NCBI GenBank assembly: GCA_016840465.1
Contig: JAEOSH010000006.1
Coordinates: 30,001-62,000 of the forward strand
Source: Candidatus Baldrarchaeum yapensis
GTDB lineage: Archaea > Asgardarchaeota > Baldrarchaeia > Baldrarchaeales > Baldrarchaeaceae
DNA length: 32,000 nt
Direction of reading: 5' to 3'
The stretch's first letter is position 1, and every line of letters begins with the position of its first letter. The position numbers and the translations under genes were made by a program. Below, one piece after another: positions 11,774 through 20,732 of the stretch. The notes under the pieces are model-generated. The model was not told where the DNA came from, did not search any database, and was given only the letters and a program-made list of their open reading frames with translations.

Positions 11774-12946
11774 TTACTTGCGGGCGACGATAATTACGCT
11801 TGCCACGGAAAATGGCCCGCCCAGATTGTGCGCAAACCCTATTTCAGCATCTTTGACCTGTAACCCTTCTGCTCTGCCTAAAACCTGTCGTGTGAGTTCT
11901 ACAACCATTCTACAGCCTGTCGCTCCAATTGGATGCCCGAAACACTTGAGTCCCCCATCAGGGTTTATAGGAAAGTCCCCGTGAATGGTCGTAACTTCCT
12001 CTCTTATGAGATCAGCACCCTCTCCAGGTTTACACAACCTCATATCTTGATAGTCCAACAGCTCCGTTATTGTAAAACAGTCATGCACAATACCAAAATC
12101 TAGTTCTTTACGCGGATCTTCAATCCCTGCCATCTTGTAAGCCATATCAGCAGCCTTTCTCGTCGATGGGAAGCCTAGGAAATCAAAATTCGGATCAAGC
12201 CACGGTGTTGCTGTTTCGACGGCAAGTCCTAGCCCCTTTATAACAGCATACTCATCACCTACCAACTTCCTAGCAATTTCGGGCCTTGTTAGAACGACGG
12301 CGGCAGCACCATCCGAAACCGCGCAACAATCGTACAACCCCAATGGATATGCAATTATGGGAGCCTTAAGCGCGGTTTCTATATCTATCTTCCTGCGAAA
12401 GTGCGCCTTGGGATGATAATAACCATTATAGTGGTTTTTAACCGCAACCTTTGCTAGGTCTTCTTTTGTCCAACCCCATACCTTAAACGCTCTGACCGCG
12501 CAAAGTGCAAACATTGCAGGAGCAGATAGACGCGGTAATACCGGTTGCGGATTCATTTCACCGACGCCAGGTAATCCTCTTGCTCCTTGATCGAGAATTT
12601 TCTCCACACCGCAAGCAATAACTATGTCATACAGCCCTGATGCAACTGCAATAGCAGCATTCCGAATAGCGTCCATTCCCGAAGCACAATAGTTCTCTAC
12701 TCTCGTAACTGGCTTGCCGAAGATCTTAAGGGGCTCGGAAAACGCAGTACCGCCAACTCCACTGAAAGTGTAGAACGTTGCAACCCATATCCCGTCAACG
12801 TCCTTAACAGGGTCTATATTAGCCTCGTTACACGCCTCATGTACCGCCTCTACTAACAAATCCTCAGCATCCTTATCCCATATCTCTCCAAACTTCGTGA
12901 CACCTGTACCTATAATCGCAACTTTATCCTTCAAACTGCCAATCAC
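11774..12946 (-). CDS. Acetyl-CoA C-acyltransferase (archaeal/SCP2-type thiolase)
   Basis: Active-site ENYCASG, KNH, SDGAAAVVL, HDCFT, GHPIGATG. GTG start coupled to the upstream stop via GGGGGTGA. Confidence 0.95.
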   Translation of the reverse strand: MIGSLKDKVAIIGTGVTKFGEIWDKDAEDLLVEAVHEACNEANIDPVKDVDGIWVATFYTFSGVGGTAFSEPLKIFGKPVTRVENYCASGMDAIRNAAIAVASGLYDIVIACGVEKILDQGARGLPGVGEMNPQPVLPRLSAPAMFALCAVRAFKVWGWTKEDLAKVAVKNHYNGYYHPKAHFRRKIDIETALKAPIIAYPLGLYDCCAVSDGAAAVVLTRPEIARKLVGDEYAVIKGLGLAVETATPWLDPNFDFLGFPSTRKAADMAYKMAGIEDPRKELDFGIVHDCFTITELLDYQDMRLCKPGEGADLIREEVTTIHGDFPINPDGGLKCFGHPIGATGCRMVVELTRQVLGRAEGLQVKDAEIGFAHNLGGPFSVASVIIVARK

Positions 12947-12950
12947 CCTA

Positions 12951-14378
12951 TCACCCCCTCACCGGACGCGCTTTCCAGTAATAAAATCTATAATCCGATT
13001 TCTGGTGAATAAGCCTAAATGTAACTTCCACCGGCATATCAACATCCAACTCTCCCATAAGAACATCAGTTACCTCCAGTAGTACACGTGTTCCATCTTC
13101 AAGATCTATCACAGCCTTTATTCCGGGATATACGCCGTCTCCGGGATAGCCCCCAGGTCCTAAGAGAAAATCATACGTATACGTGAATATTTTCCCCCTT
13201 CTTGCAAGTTTAACAATCTCATACTTGTCCTTTGCGCCGCAAATCCTGCAAACACGGGCAACAGGGTATGTAATTCTTCCGCACTCCTTGCATTTCATCC
13301 CGTAAAACGGCAATTCGAAGATCTCATCTCTCCAATAAGTTACCACCGACGCCTTGGCAGGCTCGGGCCACCTGCGATCTCTAAGCCTCTTAAAGTCCAT
13401 ATACAGCTCATACGTCGGTAATAACTTTTTAGATCTTATGTGCCCCTTAACCCCACGTCTTTTCTCATTGATGCTCTCTATTTCATCTGTAACTTCTACA
13501 TAAAAAGCCTCACATCCGTCCCCATACCCGGCACACAATATTCTATCACCGGGTTTTGCATCCTCCAGCGCCGCGGCAAGTAATAGCAATGCATGAGCGG
13601 CACCGGTGACTCCTACATCAGCAAATAGAAAGTCCTGAAGTTGGCTTTTCACATCAATGCCAATCGCAGATGCAGCTCTCACGTACTGCCTGGGATCGTT
13701 TGCGTAAAATGCAATCTTGGAGAAATCTTTCAAACAGAGTCCGGCTTTCTCTAACAGCGCCTTAATCGTTTCACTGAGAACTCTAACATAAACAACATTA
13801 TCCGCTCTTGGGTCGAATTGCATAACGTACCTATCCTCAGACCTCCTCCATGTTCCAAGAATGGGCTCATTCAGCACATGAAACTCTTTAACTTCTGCAA
13901 TTCCACGCTCTTTCCCCAATAAAAACGCCACTCCTGCATCACCATATATCTGCTCCTGTGCAGAGCCCGGAACCGGCAACCGACAATCCGCAACAGTTAC
14001 TAATACCCTTTTGCATCTCCCGGACTTTATAGCGTCCACCGCAGCCCTTATAGCCGTGATCCCGCACCTCAACGAAGATGTAAAATCCGCAACCGACACA
14101 TCTCTCCTCAAATCGAGCGCAGATGCTATTATTGTCGCGTTTTGCTTCTCTATGTAGGGAGGTGTAGTCGTCGCAAAATGCAACGCGTCTACGCCCCTTA
14201 CGTCCAAATCAGAAATGCAATCTAGCCCCGCCTCGACCGCCATGGTGATGCTGTCTTCGTCCCAGCCCGCTACCGCTCTTTCGCCGCCCATTGATGGAAT
14301 GCCGGTGGCTCTGGAAAGTTCGGTTCTACTTATCCTCCATATCGGAATATATGCGCCATAGGAAAGAATACCTACCAT
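12951..14378 (-). CDS. HMG-CoA synthase-like (catalytically degenerate) domain fused to DUF35 Zn-ribbon/OB-fold
   Basis: VGILSYGAYIP...DEDSITMAVEA thiolase-fold N-terminus. C-terminal CKECG-x8-CRIC zinc ribbon and OB fold. Start at ATG 14378 (SD GAGAGGGG, promoter 38 nt upstream); the ORF track starts at 14456. Confidence 0.9.
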   Translation of the reverse strand: MVGILSYGAYIPIWRISRTELSRATGIPSMGGERAVAGWDEDSITMAVEAGLDCISDLDVRGVDALHFATTTPPYIEKQNATIIASALDLRRDVSVADFTSSLRCGITAIRAAVDAIKSGRCKRVLVTVADCRLPVPGSAQEQIYGDAGVAFLLGKERGIAEVKEFHVLNEPILGTWRRSEDRYVMQFDPRADNVVYVRVLSETIKALLEKAGLCLKDFSKIAFYANDPRQYVRAASAIGIDVKSQLQDFLFADVGVTGAAHALLLLAAALEDAKPGDRILCAGYGDGCEAFYVEVTDEIESINEKRRGVKGHIRSKKLLPTYELYMDFKRLRDRRWPEPAKASVVTYWRDEIFELPFYGMKCKECGRITYPVARVCRICGAKDKYEIVKLARRGKIFTYTYDFLLGPGGYPGDGVYPGIKAVIDLEDGTRVLLEVTDVLMGELDVDMPVEVTFRLIHQKSDYRFYYWKARPVRG

Positions 14379-14415
14379 GACAACCCCTCTCATCCATACA
14401 TCGCCAGAAGACGAA

Positions 14416-14431
14416 TATTTAAACATTTTCA
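14416..14431 (-). promoter_or_regulatory. BRE-TATA promoter of the HMGS-like/thiolase operon
   Basis: The minus strand reads TGAAAATGTTTAAATA, 38 nt upstream of ATG 14378. Confidence 0.6.
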
Positions 14432-14627
14432 GTTGACATGTGGTCTTAAATGGCAATAATGAAAAAATTTCCGGACAATATTTACAATTCTTGCGGGCAA
14501 ATCTCCGATGCTGTGAAATATCGAGGTAAAAATGGGGACATCTGAGATAAAAATTAAGTAATCGTAGAACAATAACTCCCTACTCACAAAATTTCCGTCA
14601 CGAGAAAAGATCTACGGAGCGATCACT

Positions 14628-16435: not shown

Positions 16436-16861
16436 ATGGAAAGGGGATCTTATAAGGAAATAAGGGTCGGAACATCAATTCCCCCGCTTAAAGTTACAAT
16501 CGACAGGGATAAGTTGCTCAGGTACTGTGAAGTGACAAGAGAGGTAAACCCTATACATTTTGACGAAAATGCAGCAAAAATGCTCGGATTTGATGATATA
16601 GTTGTACAGGGAATTTTCACAATCGGCTTTTCCCGAAGATGCTTACTAGGTGGCTAGGAAGTCCGACATGTCTGAGAAGGATTGAAGTTCGCTTCACAGC
16701 ACCGGTATATGCGGGAGATACCATCATCTTTCATGGTATTGTCAAAAATATTCTGCAAGAGAAAGGAAAGACCCTGTTAGAATGTGAAATATGGGCGGAA
16801 AAGGAGAGCGGCAAGAGGGTCATTTGAGGGCGACGCGGAAGTGCTACTGGAAAAGCCTTGA
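16436..16861 (+). pseudogene. Disrupted MaoC-family (R)-enoyl-CoA hydratase subunit
   Basis: EVNPIHFDENAAKMLGF...QG, then a frame change at ~16628-16634 to MLTRWLG...VRFTAPVYAGDTI, then a second change at 16823-16825 to EGDAEVLLEKP*. The repaired product is 141 aa. Confidence 0.87.
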
Positions 16862-17008
16862 TGTAAGACCTATTGTATGCGTGAAAGTAATCCTCCAATG
16901 TACAAATAGTGCGAGAAATCTTGCATCACTTAGGGAATCCCTTAAAACTAAAAGTTCATGAGAATTACTCGACAGCGAAGGTGTTCCATACTCAAAGGTA
17001 GTGGTACC

Positions 17009-18244
17009 ATGGGGGCCGGAGATTTTAGAAGTGTGGAAGAACTCCTAAAGGCACATGGCAAACCTCCTAGAGAAGTATATCTCGATTGTGAGAATTCTCC
17101 TTGGGTCCCTCCCGAAGTCATTGACGCGATGCTTCCGTACTTTAATACCATCGGATATGGAAACCCCTTGATAACACATAAGGCCGGTTGGGAAGCTTAT
17201 GAGGCGTATAGAAGGGCCCTCATACAAATAGCTCGCCCGATAAATGCCGATCCCCAGCAATTCATCATCACCCACAGCGGGACTGAAGCAAACAATCTCG
17301 CAATCAAGGGGTATGTTCTCGCAAACAAAGATAAGGGAAGGAAAATAGTTGTATCGGAAATAGAGCATTTAAGCGTAATTTTCACAGCGGAGTACCTTAA
17401 AAACTGCGGATTTGAGGTCGTTAAGGTTCCGGTCGACGCAGAGGGTTTCATAGATCTCGAAAAACTGGCGGATATTGTCGATAGAGAAACCATTCTCGTG
17501 AGTATTATGTTGGTCAATCACGAAATAGGGACAATAGAACCCCTCAGGGAGGCCGTGGAAGTAGTAAAGGACAAAAACCCTGATGTGGTCTTCCACACGG
17601 ATGCTGCGGATGCGTACGGCAAAATAAAATTTGACGTGGAGAAACTTGGAGTTGATATGGTTTCACTAAGCGCCCGCAAAATTTATGGGCCAAGAGGAGT
17701 AGGTGCGCTTTATGTAAGAGAGGGAATAAGGTTGGAAAAACTGATACATGGCCAAATAAGTATAGAGGAATTATGGCCGGGGGTCGAGAACGTACCGCTG
17801 GTTATGGGTTTCGCAAAAGCAAGTGAACTTATATTCAAAGATTTTGACAGGAACGTCAGCCACATGAGAAAACTAAGGGACATGCTCATAGACGGCATAT
17901 TATCATCAATCCCGTACACTTTCCTTAATGGGCCAAAGGGGGATAGAAGAGCGCCGGATAACGTTAACATAAGCTTTCTCTACTGCGAAGGCGAGGCCAT
18001 GGTGATAGAGTTAAGCACGCACGGAGTTTATGTATCCAGTGGAAGCGCGTGTGCAAGCCGAATGTTGGAACCAAGTCACGTTCTCCTCGCCATAGGGCGA
18101 AAATTTGAAGAAGTGCACGGAAGTCTGCTGATGAAGGTGACGCCATATCACACAGTTGAAGATATAAAGTACGTATTAGAAGTATTGCCGAAGGCGGTAG
18201 AAAGAATAAGGAGTATAAGTGCACTTAAGCCCGAAGGTGATTGA
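17009..18244 (+). CDS. iscS: IscS/NifS-like PLP protein (divergent cysteine desulfurase family)
   Basis: YLD, GNP, TEANNLAIKG, EH, HTDA, RKIYGPRGVG (PLP Lys), SSGSAC (catalytic Cys), LEPSHVL. Likely start ATG 17009; the ORF track starts at 16958. Several ligand residues are substituted. Confidence 0.88.
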   Translation: MGAGDFRSVEELLKAHGKPPREVYLDCENSPWVPPEVIDAMLPYFNTIGYGNPLITHKAGWEAYEAYRRALIQIARPINADPQQFIITHSGTEANNLAIKGYVLANKDKGRKIVVSEIEHLSVIFTAEYLKNCGFEVVKVPVDAEGFIDLEKLADIVDRETILVSIMLVNHEIGTIEPLREAVEVVKDKNPDVVFHTDAADAYGKIKFDVEKLGVDMVSLSARKIYGPRGVGALYVREGIRLEKLIHGQISIEELWPGVENVPLVMGFAKASELIFKDFDRNVSHMRKLRDMLIDGILSSIPYTFLNGPKGDRRAPDNVNISFLYCEGEAMVIELSTHGVYVSSGSACASRMLEPSHVLLAIGRKFEEVHGSLLMKVTPYHTVEDIKYVLEVLPKAVERIRSISALKPEGD

Positions 18245-18760
18245 ATGCCAACGAAAAGGATCCCACTTCCCTATAGCCCAAAGGTGTTAGAATACTTCAG
18301 AAACCCCAAAAATTTGGGCCCGCTCGAAGATGCAAGCGTTGTTGCGATGGCAGGTAGTCCCGCGTGCGGCGATATGATCGCAATATACCTCAAAGTCAAC
18401 GACGAAAGCGAAATCATAGAAAAAGCAACATTCGAAAGCTACGGGTGTGCAGCCAACATAGCGGCAGCGAGTGTCATGACAGAAATGATAACGGGCAAGA
18501 CGCTAAAGGAAGCTTGGAATCTTACATGGAAGGACTTGTCCGATGCATTGGGCGGCCTCCCCTCTATAAAGTTTCACTGTGGAATACTCGCGGTTGGGGC
18601 TTTACGCAGAGCAATAAGAGAGTACTATAGGAAAAAGGGTAAAAATCCCGACTGGTTGCCTGAGGATCTTACAAAAGAAGAAAAAATGGCGCTCGAGGAG
18701 GAAGAACTGGTAAAACGGTTGCAAAAACGATACGAGAGAATGCTGAAACGGGGTGAATGA
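18245..18760 (+). CDS. iscU: IscU/NifU-like Fe-S cluster scaffold with charged C-terminal extension
   Basis: YSPKVLEYFRNPKN, PACGD, YGC, LPSIKFHC. Starts immediately after the iscS stop. Confidence 0.93.
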   Translation: MPTKRIPLPYSPKVLEYFRNPKNLGPLEDASVVAMAGSPACGDMIAIYLKVNDESEIIEKATFESYGCAANIAAASVMTEMITGKTLKEAWNLTWKDLSDALGGLPSIKFHCGILAVGALRRAIREYYRKKGKNPDWLPEDLTKEEKMALEEEELVKRLQKRYERMLKRGE

Positions 18761-18763
18761 CAA

Positions 18764-19036
18764 GTGGGCCTAGTGGACGAGTTTGTGAAGAATTACACGA
18801 AGAGTTGTACTGCGGAAACGACGTATACCGTTACGCTCAAGTGGGACAAGATTGATGACGCCTATCGGAGAATCTTAAGTAAGGGTAAGGTTATTTCAAA
18901 GATGCCCATGTTAACCCGCGTCGTCTACGAAGGTGTGGAGATAACGCTTTTCAGAACGGGAAAAATGGTTATTAAAAAACTTGGTGATCGCGATATAAGG
19001 GAATTTTTGGAGAATCTTCTCTCGGATAGCGGCTGA
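18764..19036 (+). CDS. Small hypothetical protein (ITLFRTGKMVIK motif; TBP-half/ThiF-C-terminal-like fold suspected)
   Basis: GTG start after GGGGTGA, 3 nt after the iscU stop. 90 aa with typical codon usage. Confidence 0.7.
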   Translation: MGLVDEFVKNYTKSCTAETTYTVTLKWDKIDDAYRRILSKGKVISKMPMLTRVVYEGVEITLFRTGKMVIKKLGDRDIREFLENLLSDSG

Positions 19037-19057: not shown

Positions 19058-19091
19058 TATCCGTGGCGACTATTTCTCAGTGGGGAGAAGT

Positions 19092-19910
19092 ATGTGTGAC
19101 TGGTGCATTAAGCACGGAGAAGGTAAACTATGGTATTTAAACGCGAAAAACTACGCCAGAAAAATGTATCGAGAGAGAAAAAGAGCGGAACTTACCGGAA
19201 AGGTGGAATTTGATCCGCTCAAATTAATAATGGAGCAGCTTGAGAACGCACTTAAGTATTACGGCACCGAACGCTGGCCAACCATAAAAAAGCAAATAGA
19301 AAACTTCTGCCACGCGGTGCACTTTGGCCAGGTGGTGCCACTTGAAGACCTAAAAGCGATCCTTGACATCGCATGGCCTATTGCGAGAATAACATGCGCA
19401 TGTAGACGCATGGTTTATGGACTTGAAGATGAAGAGAACTTCTACTGTTTCGGGATAGGCGTCGGGATGTATAAGTGGGAGCGCTGGCCCGAAAATTACA
19501 GAGGTGGTGTGGAGTTCATATCCCCCGATGAGGCCAAGAGGCTTGTGGAGGAGTTCAACAAAAAGGGACTTGTGCACACAATTTGGGTTTTCGGAACTCC
19601 CTACATAGGAGGAATATGCAACTGTGAATACCCCGTTTGTCTCGGAATAAGAAACCGTGTGGACTACGGGATCAAAATATTACTAAAGGGACATTACGTA
19701 GCGGTTCTGGATCCGGAAAAGTGCAACGGTTGTAGAAGATGTGTAGCGAGATGCCAATTCGGGGCGATAAAATACTCCCCCAGCATGAATAAAGTTGTCA
19801 TAGATATGAAGAAGTGCTTCGGATGCGGGTTGTGTGTCACCGCCTGTCCTCGTGGAGCAATCAGACTTGAAAGGAGAGAGAAGTTCCCAGCAATAGCGAA
19901 TGACTGGTAG
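19092..19910 (+). CDS. 4Fe-4S dicluster protein with Cys-rich N-terminal domain
   Basis: CNGCRRCVARC and CFGCGLCVTAC ferredoxin motifs, plus CDWC, CACRR and CNCEYPVC. ATG 19092 follows GGGGAGA; the ORF track uses GTG 19080. Confidence 0.88.
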   Translation: MCDWCIKHGEGKLWYLNAKNYARKMYRERKRAELTGKVEFDPLKLIMEQLENALKYYGTERWPTIKKQIENFCHAVHFGQVVPLEDLKAILDIAWPIARITCACRRMVYGLEDEENFYCFGIGVGMYKWERWPENYRGGVEFISPDEAKRLVEEFNKKGLVHTIWVFGTPYIGGICNCEYPVCLGIRNRVDYGIKILLKGHYVAVLDPEKCNGCRRCVARCQFGAIKYSPSMNKVVIDMKKCFGCGLCVTACPRGAIRLERREKFPAIANDW

Positions 19911-19919
19911 GTGAACCGG

Positions 19920-20150
19920 ATGCCGATAAGGATAGAAGTGGACACCGAGAAATGTGGAAACGCAATGGAGTGCAAGATTTGTCTCAGAGTTTGTCCTCAG
20001 AGAGTTTTTATGATGTTCCCAAGCACCTATGAGAAGTACAAGTTATCAGAGAGGTTTTATATACGCCCGGTCCATGCAGTTGCCTGCGTGCTTTGTAATT
20101 TATGTGTGGAAAAATGTCCTAAGGGCGCAATAAGGATAATAACGCAGTAG
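19920..20150 (+). CDS. Ferredoxin (2x[4Fe-4S]-type)
   Basis: CGNAMECKICLRVCP and CVLCNLCVEKCP. ATG 5 nt after GGTGA. Confidence 0.88.
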   Translation: MPIRIEVDTEKCGNAMECKICLRVCPQRVFMMFPSTYEKYKLSERFYIRPVHAVACVLCNLCVEKCPKGAIRIITQ

Positions 20151-20159
20151 GTGAGACAT

Positions 20160-20732
20160 ATGACCACAGAGGGGGAATTATACGACTATTATCTGCCGGA
20201 TGAGTTATTAGCCACAATAAGGGAAAAATTCGACGTGAAAACTCTGGTGAGGGAACTTGTGGAAAAATGCAGAGGAAAAGACCCAACGGAGATCGAAAAA
20301 CTGGCATCTCAAATTTTAGGCGAAAGGTTGAAGGAATCCATTAAGGCGGCGATAGAGGTGGGGGAAAAGGTACTGGACAGGACCGCAGAGTGGATTTACA
20401 AGGTGGCCCAGAAGACCGGAATAAGGTTTCCGAGTGTACCTCAAAGATTCATAGAAGCCCATTTTATGGCAGCAAGAAAAAATGATAAATATGAAATACG
20501 CGCCAGTACACCATCTTTTATGGAATTTGAAGTCAAAAGATGTGAAATTTTTGATTTGCTGAGAAAATCTCTTGGCGATGATGCAATGAGGTCAATGCCT
20601 TGTCGCTATGGATGCATATTAGCATCAAAAACGTTATTCGAAGCGCTAAAATTTGATGTAGAGATACTAAGACATTCTGAGATGTCCAAGGACGGAAAAT
20701 GCAGAATAGAAATTAAGTTGAAGAGTGGTTAA
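20160..20732 (+). CDS. Hypothetical protein with C-terminal V4R/ATC-hydrolase-like Cys domain
   Basis: FEVKRC...PCRYGC...GKCRIEI pattern. ATG 5 nt after GGTGA, coupled to the ferredoxin stop. Confidence 0.65.
   Translation: MTTEGELYDYYLPDELLATIREKFDVKTLVRELVEKCRGKDPTEIEKLASQILGERLKESIKAAIEVGEKVLDRTAEWIYKVAQKTGIRFPSVPQRFIEAHFMAARKNDKYEIRASTPSFMEFEVKRCEIFDLLRKSLGDDAMRSMPCRYGCILASKTLFEALKFDVEILRHSEMSKDGKCRIEIKLKSG

Follow-up and report, generated by a model that had tools for sequence, protein, structure and literature searches.

Archaea are already known to have IscS-like proteins that depart from the classical cysteine desulfurase. The IscS of Archaeoglobus fulgidus lacks desulfurase activity, yet in a crystal complex its cysteine ligates the [2Fe-2S] cluster on IscU; sulfide has been proposed as the sulfur source. 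IscS1 of Methanosarcina acetivorans lacks the lysine that binds pyridoxal 5'-phosphate (PLP) (PMC7585200). And the minimal iron-sulfur (MIS) system of archaea pairs MisS with MisU, as summarized in PMC13066941 and PMC12442378 (Garcia et al. 2022). MIS and SMS can reportedly make use of sulfide, and the origin of the sulfur in these "minimal" systems is an open question (PMC13066941). Here we describe a clade of archaeal IscS-like proteins that retain the PLP lysine but lack the substrate-binding arginine, along with its genetic link to SufS and to a small protein that we call p90. We found no published description of the clade, of the SufS link, or of p90 in the literature on MisS/MisU and on IscU/SufS in Bathyarchaeia, Asgard archaea, and Thermoproteota, although the key MIS paper might mention them. 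The clade is represented in a 32,000-nucleotide stretch of the genome of Candidatus Baldrarchaeum yapensis (contig JAEOSH010000006.1, positions 30,001 to 62,000), which we will call the window, by a protein of 411 amino acids that is encoded at 17009..18244 on the + strand. We coined the name ISCS* for this archaeal subfamily.

The strictly conserved active-site residues of cysteine desulfurases are a histidine, a lysine, a cysteine, and an arginine (2022 review, PMC8918507). In the PLP-cysteine aldimine, the carboxylate is held by the guanidinium group of the arginine, a contact that sets the catalytic loop moving (PMC8918507). At the position of this arginine, the window protein has Leu374. 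We propose, with roughly even confidence for and against, that ISCS* is not a desulfurase for free cysteine, but rather a partner that docks onto IscU and uses the cysteine on its loop to relay sulfur made by SufS, or sulfide.

The active site of ISCS* and the clade it marks

We aligned the window protein and its relatives to IscS from Escherichia coli (from NC_000913) using MAFFT. The window protein and E. coli IscS are 37% identical. In E. coli numbering (Ec), which we use for active-site positions, the window protein retains the Schiff-base lysine K206 (its own K224), the pyridine-nitrogen aspartate D180 (D198), H104 (H120), and C328 (C348), and T76 and S203 are likewise kept. The replaced residues are S10/A11/T12 (now E28/N29/S30), N155 (H171), Q183 (D201), H205 (R223), R240 (W256), T243 (V259), R354 (L374), and S356 (K376). 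A sequence-only reading of the window had listed the corresponding motif changes by eye, and the MAFFT alignment reproduces all of them: YLDYSATT → YLDCENSP, VNNEIG → VNHEIG (N155H), DATQ → DAAD (Q183D), SGHK → SARK (H205R), RSGT → WPGV (R240W and T243V), and SSIRFS → GSLLMK (R354L and S356K). The retention of K206, D180, H104, and C328, which it had also claimed, is confirmed by the same alignment. Its statement that most of the PLP ligands are lost was too strong. The residues Q183, T243', H205, N155, and R354 are indeed gone, but the anchors K206, D180, T76, S203, and H104 remain. The active-site roles of N155, Q183, and T243 are known from structures of IscS and SufS.

These replacements are shared by many archaeal proteins. 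A word-indexed protein search found at least 120 clusters (at the 90% identity level) that are 59–68% identical to the window protein and that come from Asgard archaea, Bathyarchaeia, Desulfurococcaceae, Ignisphaera, Thermofilaceae, Nezhaarchaeales, and Geothermarchaeota. An exhaustive search of 50%-identity representatives yielded a single cluster of full length, at 543 bits; two partial sequences, which are shorter, have the same signature. Below that single cluster there is a gap: the next matches have at most 48% identity and about 360 bits. In a scan of genomes at the species level, 588 relatives matched ISCS*; we kept the best 80 of these to look at their loci, and most of the 80 belong to the clade.

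We then compared 121 members of the clade to 147 other type-I representatives. All 121 have E at position 10 (the others have A, N, or S), N at position 11 (A in 122 of the others), V, I, or L at position 243 (T in 132), L at position 354 (R in 134), and K at position 356 (S or T in the others). Nearly all have H at position 155 (115 of 121, versus N in 126 of the others), D at position 183 (118, versus Q in 124), and W at position 240 (119, versus R in 137). Overall, the replacement residues are fixed in 115–121 of the 121 members and reach at most 5% among the 147 others. This pattern of shared replacements is far beyond chance. Meanwhile, K206 and C328 are present in every member of the clade (as in 135 and 142 of the others, respectively), and D180, T76, and S203 are nearly invariant among the 121 core members. 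A systematic scan identified 23 positions that are fixed in the clade and rare outside of it. Several of these are at known active-site positions (E10, N11, S12, H155, D183, L354, and K356), and the 23 also include a clade-specific N-terminal helix with an invariant L12 and H16.

In a FastTree phylogeny rooted on SufS, the ISCS* proteins are monophyletic and sit on a long stem (0.31), with a Shimodaira-Hasegawa-like (SH-like) support value of 99. The sequence-only reading had raised the question of whether the substitutions define a clade. They do: with the exception of H205R, they are the mark of a discrete clade that spans Asgard archaea, Bathyarchaeia, Thermoproteota, and related archaea. 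H205R is private to the window protein, as just 2 of the 121 members have arginine there and most have H (42) or Y (70). There is also a split within the clade: 76 of the 121 members have lost the PLP-stacking H104 as well (H104P, together with H205Y and G75E). The window protein falls in the branch that keeps His104.

The nearest protein with a solved structure is the inactive IscS of A. fulgidus (sequence E = 1e-96; TM score of 0.96–0.97 and rmsd of 1.5 Å to the AlphaFold2 (AF2) model of the window protein). We checked this precedent, which the sequence-only reading had cited, and the literature bears it out. Structures of the A. fulgidus protein (IscS2) include PDB 4eb5, 4eb7, and 4hvk, as well as 4r5f for the D199K mutant. 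Like ISCS*, it is an archaeal type-I protein that pairs with IscU, has a leucine in place of Arg354, has a change at Q183, and retains the cysteine loop. But it has lost the PLP lysine (Asp199, in SSND) and binds pyridoxamine 5'-phosphate, while the window protein keeps the lysine (SARK). Also, A. fulgidus IscS keeps N155 and, near its N-terminus, a canonical-like YTSA motif, whereas ISCS* has the fixed residues E10, N11, H155, D183, W240, V243, and K356. Two groups in our tree, P0130 and P0134, are A. fulgidus-like by residue pattern alone (A. fulgidus IscS itself is not in the tree), and they lie outside of the ISCS* clade. On that reading, the canonical residues were lost more than once, as independent departures.

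The more classical systems are further away. E. coli IscS-IscU (PDB 1p3w and 3lvl) and human NFS1-ISCU share with ISCS* the fold (TM scores of 0.87–0.93), the PLP lysine and the aspartate, the long mobile cysteine loop SSGSAC, and the adjacency of the gene to that of a U-type scaffold. Unlike the E. coli system, ISCS* has R354L, N155H, Q183D, T243V, R240W, SATT → ENS, and the clade-specific N-terminal helix; its IscU has an acidic tail of 41 amino acids; and there is no hscBA, fdx, or iscA.

By its sequence, the open reading frame (ORF) at 17009..18244 encodes a class-V PLP protein of type I (IscS/NifS/MisS). At full length, this protein matches PF00266 (Aminotran_5) in Pfam (E = 1.2e-60; 205.9 bits versus a gathering cut-off of 21.5; residues 23–388 align to positions 1–370 of the 371-position profile). 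It lacks the β-hairpin pattern of type-II proteins, its cysteine is on the long SSGSAC loop, and its best fold matches are type-I structures. The best NCBIfam models are NifS and IscS, yet the protein falls under every equivalog cut-off (TIGR03402, 390.9 versus 530.75; TIGR02006, 321.1 versus 643.2; NF010611, 322.6 versus 548). The AF2 model has a predicted local distance difference test (pLDDT) score of 91.3. C348 is within the loop YVSSGSACAS, and pLDDT is low at residues 347–351, as expected of a mobile loop. An identical protein of 411 amino acids has already been called as a gene in public collections. The longest form of the ORF begins at an in-frame ATG at 16958, while the start at 17009 gives the 411 amino acids. 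Directly 5' of ATG 16958 is a TATA-like A/T box (CCTTAAAACTAAAAG, 16940..16954, + strand), which we read off the sequence and which may be a promoter element. Because this box is just ahead of the upstream ATG, 17009 seems the more likely start, and homologs begin at the residue encoded at 17009 or close to it.

IscU, SufS, and small cysteine proteins beside ISCS*

The gene for IscU (iscU/MisU; 18245..18760, + strand; 171 amino acids; NifU_N E = 1.4e-39) begins right behind the stop codon of the window's ISCS*, with no base in between. In a profile search, it was the sole NifU_N gene in the genome. The protein has all of the cluster ligands (C41, D43, C68, H111, and C112). To describe the neighborhood more broadly, we clustered the neighboring ORFs from 55 loci: 51 from the species-level scan, 3 from contig look-ups, and the window itself. 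In every one of these loci, IscU (median, 168 amino acids) is directly downstream of ISCS*, and its ligands C37, D39, C63, H105, and C106 are kept in all 55. The window's IscU cannot be assigned as SufU: TIGR01994 gives 66.5 versus a cut-off of 92.5, and H105-C106 is kept in 55 of 55 IscU proteins. The IscU proteins that are paired with ISCS* have a conserved tail of about 41 amino acids with the consensus P(D/E)WLPxELxxEEKxALEEEEL, which E. coli IscU does not have. In the window, this tail is the acidic C-terminal 41–42 residues (PDWLPEDLTKEEKMALEEEEL, 18632-18760). It may be a docking helix.

As in MIS, then, the window has a two-gene unit of adjacent IscS-like and IscU-like genes in an archaeon, and we found no HscA/B or IscA domains among the neighboring genes that were scanned in the window, that is, no genes for an HscAB chaperone or an A-type carrier. 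However, the characterized IscS of MIS (IscS2-IscU2 of M. acetivorans) is a typical PLP cysteine desulfurase, while ISCS* lacks the arginine. Furthermore, ISCS* is usually in one operon with a type-II SufS and a small cysteine protein, and we did not find such an arrangement described.

In about 39 of the 55 loci, which represent several phyla, there is another class-V gene no more than 4.5 kb from ISCS*. All 28 of the full-length copies are orthologs of the SufS of the window's genome, with 47–63% identity to it. (This genome is 2.27 Mb and 96% complete; it also carries one SufB-like gene.) The sequence-only reading had suggested searching the genome for a canonical desulfurase, and that search finds this SufS on contig C63 (TIGR01979, 553 versus a cut-off of 475). 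All 12 of the catalytic residues that we checked are intact in it. Across the 29 sequences (the 28 relatives and the SufS of the window's genome), H55, H123, N175, D200, Q203, S223, H225, K226, R359, C364, and R379 are present in 29 of 29, and T278 is canonical in 28 of 29. Because N175, Q203, and R379 are the counterparts of residues that are changed in ISCS*, SufS serves as an internal control, which rules out a lineage-wide drift. Decay and adaptation to thermophily as explanations for the replacements are rejected along with drift: the replacements are fixed, and the SufS proteins from the relatives' operons and from the window's genome keep the equivalent canonical residues. The fixed alternative signature also argues against a dead pseudo-enzyme.

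The third kind of neighbor is a small protein with a single cysteine. In the window, p90 (18764..19036, + strand) begins 3 nt past iscU and has 90 amino acids and a single invariant cysteine, C15. It is found in 34 of the 55 loci (for instance, L014:6962-7231), and C15 is invariant. Other examples include L096:3968-4228 and about 45 further loci. The family has over 3,000 members, mostly from Bathyarchaeia, and its labels from JGI ("ribonuclease HIII" or TBP) are often wrong. The window's p90 has no match in Pfam, and its relatives give only weak matches to TBP or DUF3378. The AF2 model (pLDDT of 91) has a TBP-like fold, with middling VIA-align matches (Z of 6.8–6.9), and a Foldseek search against PDB found nothing at E ≤ 0.001. 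In the Atlas, p90 matches unnamed clusters from Bathyarchaeota; its likeness to part of ThiF-family proteins (TM score of about 0.6) is a lead only. We also considered that p90 might be a relative of TusA, but a comparison showed no similarity. A complex prediction for ISCS* and IscU with p90 as the partner scored 0.00, which is no verdict and says nothing about binding either way. We consider p90 to be a candidate for a new sulfur carrier or cluster ligand.

In other lineages, other small proteins are found. Classic TusA (with CPGP) is in 9 of the 55 loci. In 8 of the 55, which are from Thermoproteota and Aigarchaeota, p90 is replaced by a protein of about 80 amino acids with an invariant GC(T/V)xxP that resembles the CPxP of TusA (L012:3668-3898, L015:7867-8109, and six more loci); this TusA-like protein has no Pfam match and lies between IscU and SufS. 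CysK-like PALP genes are in 9 of the 55 loci. So the gene order is ISCS*-IscU-SufS-p90 in Bathyarchaeia; ISCS*-IscU-(TusA-like)-SufS in Thermoproteota and Aigarchaeota; (SufS-PALP-)TusA-ISCS*-IscU in another arrangement; and ISCS*-IscU-p90 in the window. In that they link a canonical SufS to a U-type protein as well as to small single-cysteine proteins, these loci are reminiscent of SufS-SufE or SufS-SufU in bacteria. But the U-type protein in the window is IscU-like, with His105 kept beside Cys106, there is an extra type-I paralog (ISCS*) between it and SufS, and p90, with its TBP-like fold and lack of a Pfam match, is not SufE-like.

Within the window's own phylum, 22 of 121 genomes have an ISCS*-type match at 49% identity or above, including both of the sampled genomes from the window's order (50–52% identity). 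We retrieved 21 of these 22 loci: IscU is adjacent in 21 of 21, p90 is present in 13, and SufS is present in 8. One of the loci from the window's order (L097, on a long contig) has SufS just 1.2 kb away, with 78% identity to the SufS of the window's genome.

One Asgard family has 12 copies of ISCS*, of which 7 have lost the PLP lysine itself (K206R), along with changes at S203 and H205. (These are L101, L102, L109–L112, and L114, from genomes G065, G078, G120, G114, G046, G090, and G061.) C328 and L354 are found in every one of the seven, and E10, N11, and K356 in six of them. The order p90-ISCS*-IscU is intact in six of the seven loci; the other one, L114, begins at the end of a contig, so the position of p90 is out of view. 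For two of these genomes, the assembly is one contig. Neither holds another type-I gene at E ≤ 1e-60, and both carry a SufS-like gene of full length that scores about 394 bits, under the family cut-off. The retention of the cysteine loop, the alternative pocket residues, and the synteny suggests that in this family, selection preserves the cysteine loop, along with the alternative pocket residues, and not Schiff-base catalysis. To judge from their sequences, the K206R proteins look like a further step away from catalysis.

Desulfurase or sulfur relay

The sequence-only reading had doubted that ISCS* carries out ordinary desulfuration of L-cysteine and had proposed a scaffold partner or another sulfur donor. 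Five indirect lines of evidence from sequence and context agree with this doubt. First, the strictly conserved arginine that binds the carboxylate (PMC8918507) is leucine in 121 of 121 members. Second, a canonical SufS is in the same operon in most of the relatives and is present in the window's genome. Third, single-cysteine carrier-like proteins (p90, TusA, or TusA-like) share the operons. Fourth, there are the Asgard relatives with the same synteny and K206R. And fifth, there is the precedent from A. fulgidus. The support is partial, on two counts. The lysine in LLMKV could stand in for the arginine, a caveat that the sequence-only reading itself had given, and K206 and the whole alternative pocket are strictly conserved in the core clade, which argues that the PLP site still works.

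From this evidence, we infer that ISCS* has probably lost its stand-alone desulfurase activity. It does not seem to be simply the cell's cysteine desulfurase because the loss of the arginine is universal and His104 or Lys206 are often lost in sub-lineages, while the cysteine loop and the partnership with IscU are unbroken and the operon with SufS and single-cysteine carriers is recurrent. Our proposal is that ISCS* would dock onto IscU, the long-tailed scaffold with which it forms an obligatory gene pair, and that Cys348 would receive sulfur and hand it over, or would ligate the nascent cluster. The sulfur would be made elsewhere. Its probable source is the canonical SufS, which most relatives encode within the ISCS* operon and which is found on contig C63 here, possibly with a transfer step via p90 (or via TusA or the TusA-like protein in other lineages). 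Free sulfide could be an alternative source. The window protein probably still binds PLP, either as a structural cofactor or for an altered reaction.

More tentatively, and with considerable doubt, we suggest that ISCS*-IscU-SufS-p90 (with TusA or the TusA-like protein in some lineages) is an undescribed hybrid system for assembling iron-sulfur (Fe-S) clusters in Asgard archaea, Bathyarchaeia, Thermoproteota, and related archaea. SufS would make the persulfide, p90 with its TBP fold would carry it, and ISCS*, as a retired enzyme that holds on to PLP, would be both a persulfide shuttle and the fourth cluster ligand on IscU.

Several observations weigh against the relay. In the window's genome, SufS is flanked by unrelated genes and is not adjacent to ISCS*. 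One relative (G005, whose completeness is unknown) has no strong SufS-like match in its genome. In a control, SufS was nearby in just 1 of 24 canonical type-I loci, but these control loci are mostly bacterial; and synteny counts such as the 39 of 55 come from related, non-independent genomes. Also, the invariance of K206 and the fixation of the replacements imply a functional pocket for PLP or a ligand, rather than a retired one. Near the position of R354 there is an invariant lysine, K356, which might take over the binding of the carboxylate. And the two lineages without K356 (L097 and L098) have an arginine at position 11, so the positive charge was perhaps relocated and not lost, and a cation in the pocket may matter.

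So we considered that ISCS* might be an ordinary L-cysteine desulfurase (a MisS) whose clamp has shifted: Lys376 (Ec 356), assisted by His171 (Ec 155), would stand in for Arg354 and Asn155, and SufS would serve other sulfur pathways. The lysine is two residues past the position of R354 and in the same predicted β-strand (372–376 in the AF2 model), and because side chains alternate along a strand, it should face the same way as R354. This explanation also fits with the R11 in the relatives that lack K356, with the intact K206, D180, T76, S203, and SSGSAC loop (as well as H104 in the window protein), and with the classic arrangement of iscS and iscU. However, arginine is near-universal at this position in class-V enzymes (134 of 147, and strictly conserved according to PMC8918507). 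Q183D, T243V, and R240W also alter the contacts to O3' and the phosphate of PLP simultaneously, and the acid-base residue His104 is absent from 76 of 121 members. Six of the seven K206R proteins keep K356, E10, and N11, which argues that these residues do not serve PLP catalysis. And with an intact SufS in the same operon, a second cysteine desulfurase would be redundant. We consider a moved clamp to be rather unlikely, although it is the leading alternative to the relay.

A purely sulfide-dependent MIS pair, in which ISCS* merely stabilizes IscU and lends Cys348 as the fourth ligand, would make SufS and p90 functionally unrelated neighbors. This would be consistent with A. fulgidus and its proposed sulfide source, with the reported ability of MIS and SMS to use sulfide (PMC13066941), with the sulfidic habitats of these lineages (which are mostly anaerobes, judging by source names), and with the unlinked SufS in the window's genome. 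But this seems hard to reconcile with the adjacency of SufS in about 39 of 55 loci from several phyla versus 1 of 24 controls, or with the recurrence of single-cysteine carrier-like proteins in the operons, and a mere ligand donor has no need for the strictly kept K206. We view it as improbable.

The least probable explanation is that ISCS* uses PLP to act on a new substrate, with a remodeled pocket (Glu10, Asn11, His155, Asp183, Leu354, Lys356, and the helix with Leu12 and His16) that binds an amino-thiol without a free α-carboxylate or with a different group, such as cysteamine or peptide- or carrier-bound cysteine, and that still delivers sulfur to Cys348: the 23 fixed positions (several of them in the active site), the strict conservation of K206 in the core clade, and the exchange of a positive arginine for leucine together with new acidic residues (E10 and D183) would fit, but there is no consistent substrate pathway nearby, the neighbors (SufS, CysK-like PALP, TusA, and p90) point to cysteine by way of SufS, and the losses of His104 (76 of 121) and, in Asgard relatives, of K206 are hard to square with conserved PLP chemistry.

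Other nearby genes and the meaning of the clade

Downstream of p90 in the window are three tightly packed genes (19080-20732, + strand). The first encodes 276 amino acids, of which the N-terminal 200 are unassigned and the C-terminal part is a 2x[4Fe-4S] ferredoxin domain; the second is a dicluster ferredoxin of 79 amino acids; and the third encodes 193 amino acids and has no Pfam match. In other genomes, these genes are not conserved beside ISCS*. They might donate electrons to the Fe-S system or be a client of it. Upstream of ISCS*, at 16436-16827 (+ strand), a MaoC-type hot-dog dehydratase is spread over two overlapping ORFs in different frames (Pfam positions 14–66 and 66–103 of 123), which reflects either a frameshift in the gene or a mistake in the assembly. 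At 11774-14456 (− strand) is a fusion of a ketosynthase-fold enzyme (with weak matches to ACP_syn_III) and a DUF35-type Zn-ribbon/OB module (zf-ChsH2 and OB_ChsH2_C), with a thiolase gene 4 nt downstream. In Bathyarchaeia, a large DEAD/Hel308-like helicase is divergently upstream of ISCS* (about 28 loci, as well as L014:186-3845, − strand), and the helicase of L014 contains an intein with a LAGLIDADG endonuclease domain.

Among the systems of Fe-S biogenesis, archaeal cluster assembly is the least well understood. A large share of the archaeal proteins that are annotated as "cysteine desulfurase" belong to a distinct, IscU-locked subfamily that lacks the substrate-binding arginine, which argues that metabolic reconstructions of Asgard and TACK archaea should not count ISCS* genes as cysteine desulfurases. 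The series from the full enzyme, to the loss of the arginine, to the loss of the histidine or the lysine is a natural one for studying how an enzyme might change into an adaptor. And because the subfamily is in most cases linked with a genuine SufS and with the p90 family of cysteine proteins, it offers a concrete and testable route by which sulfur might reach IscU in archaea.

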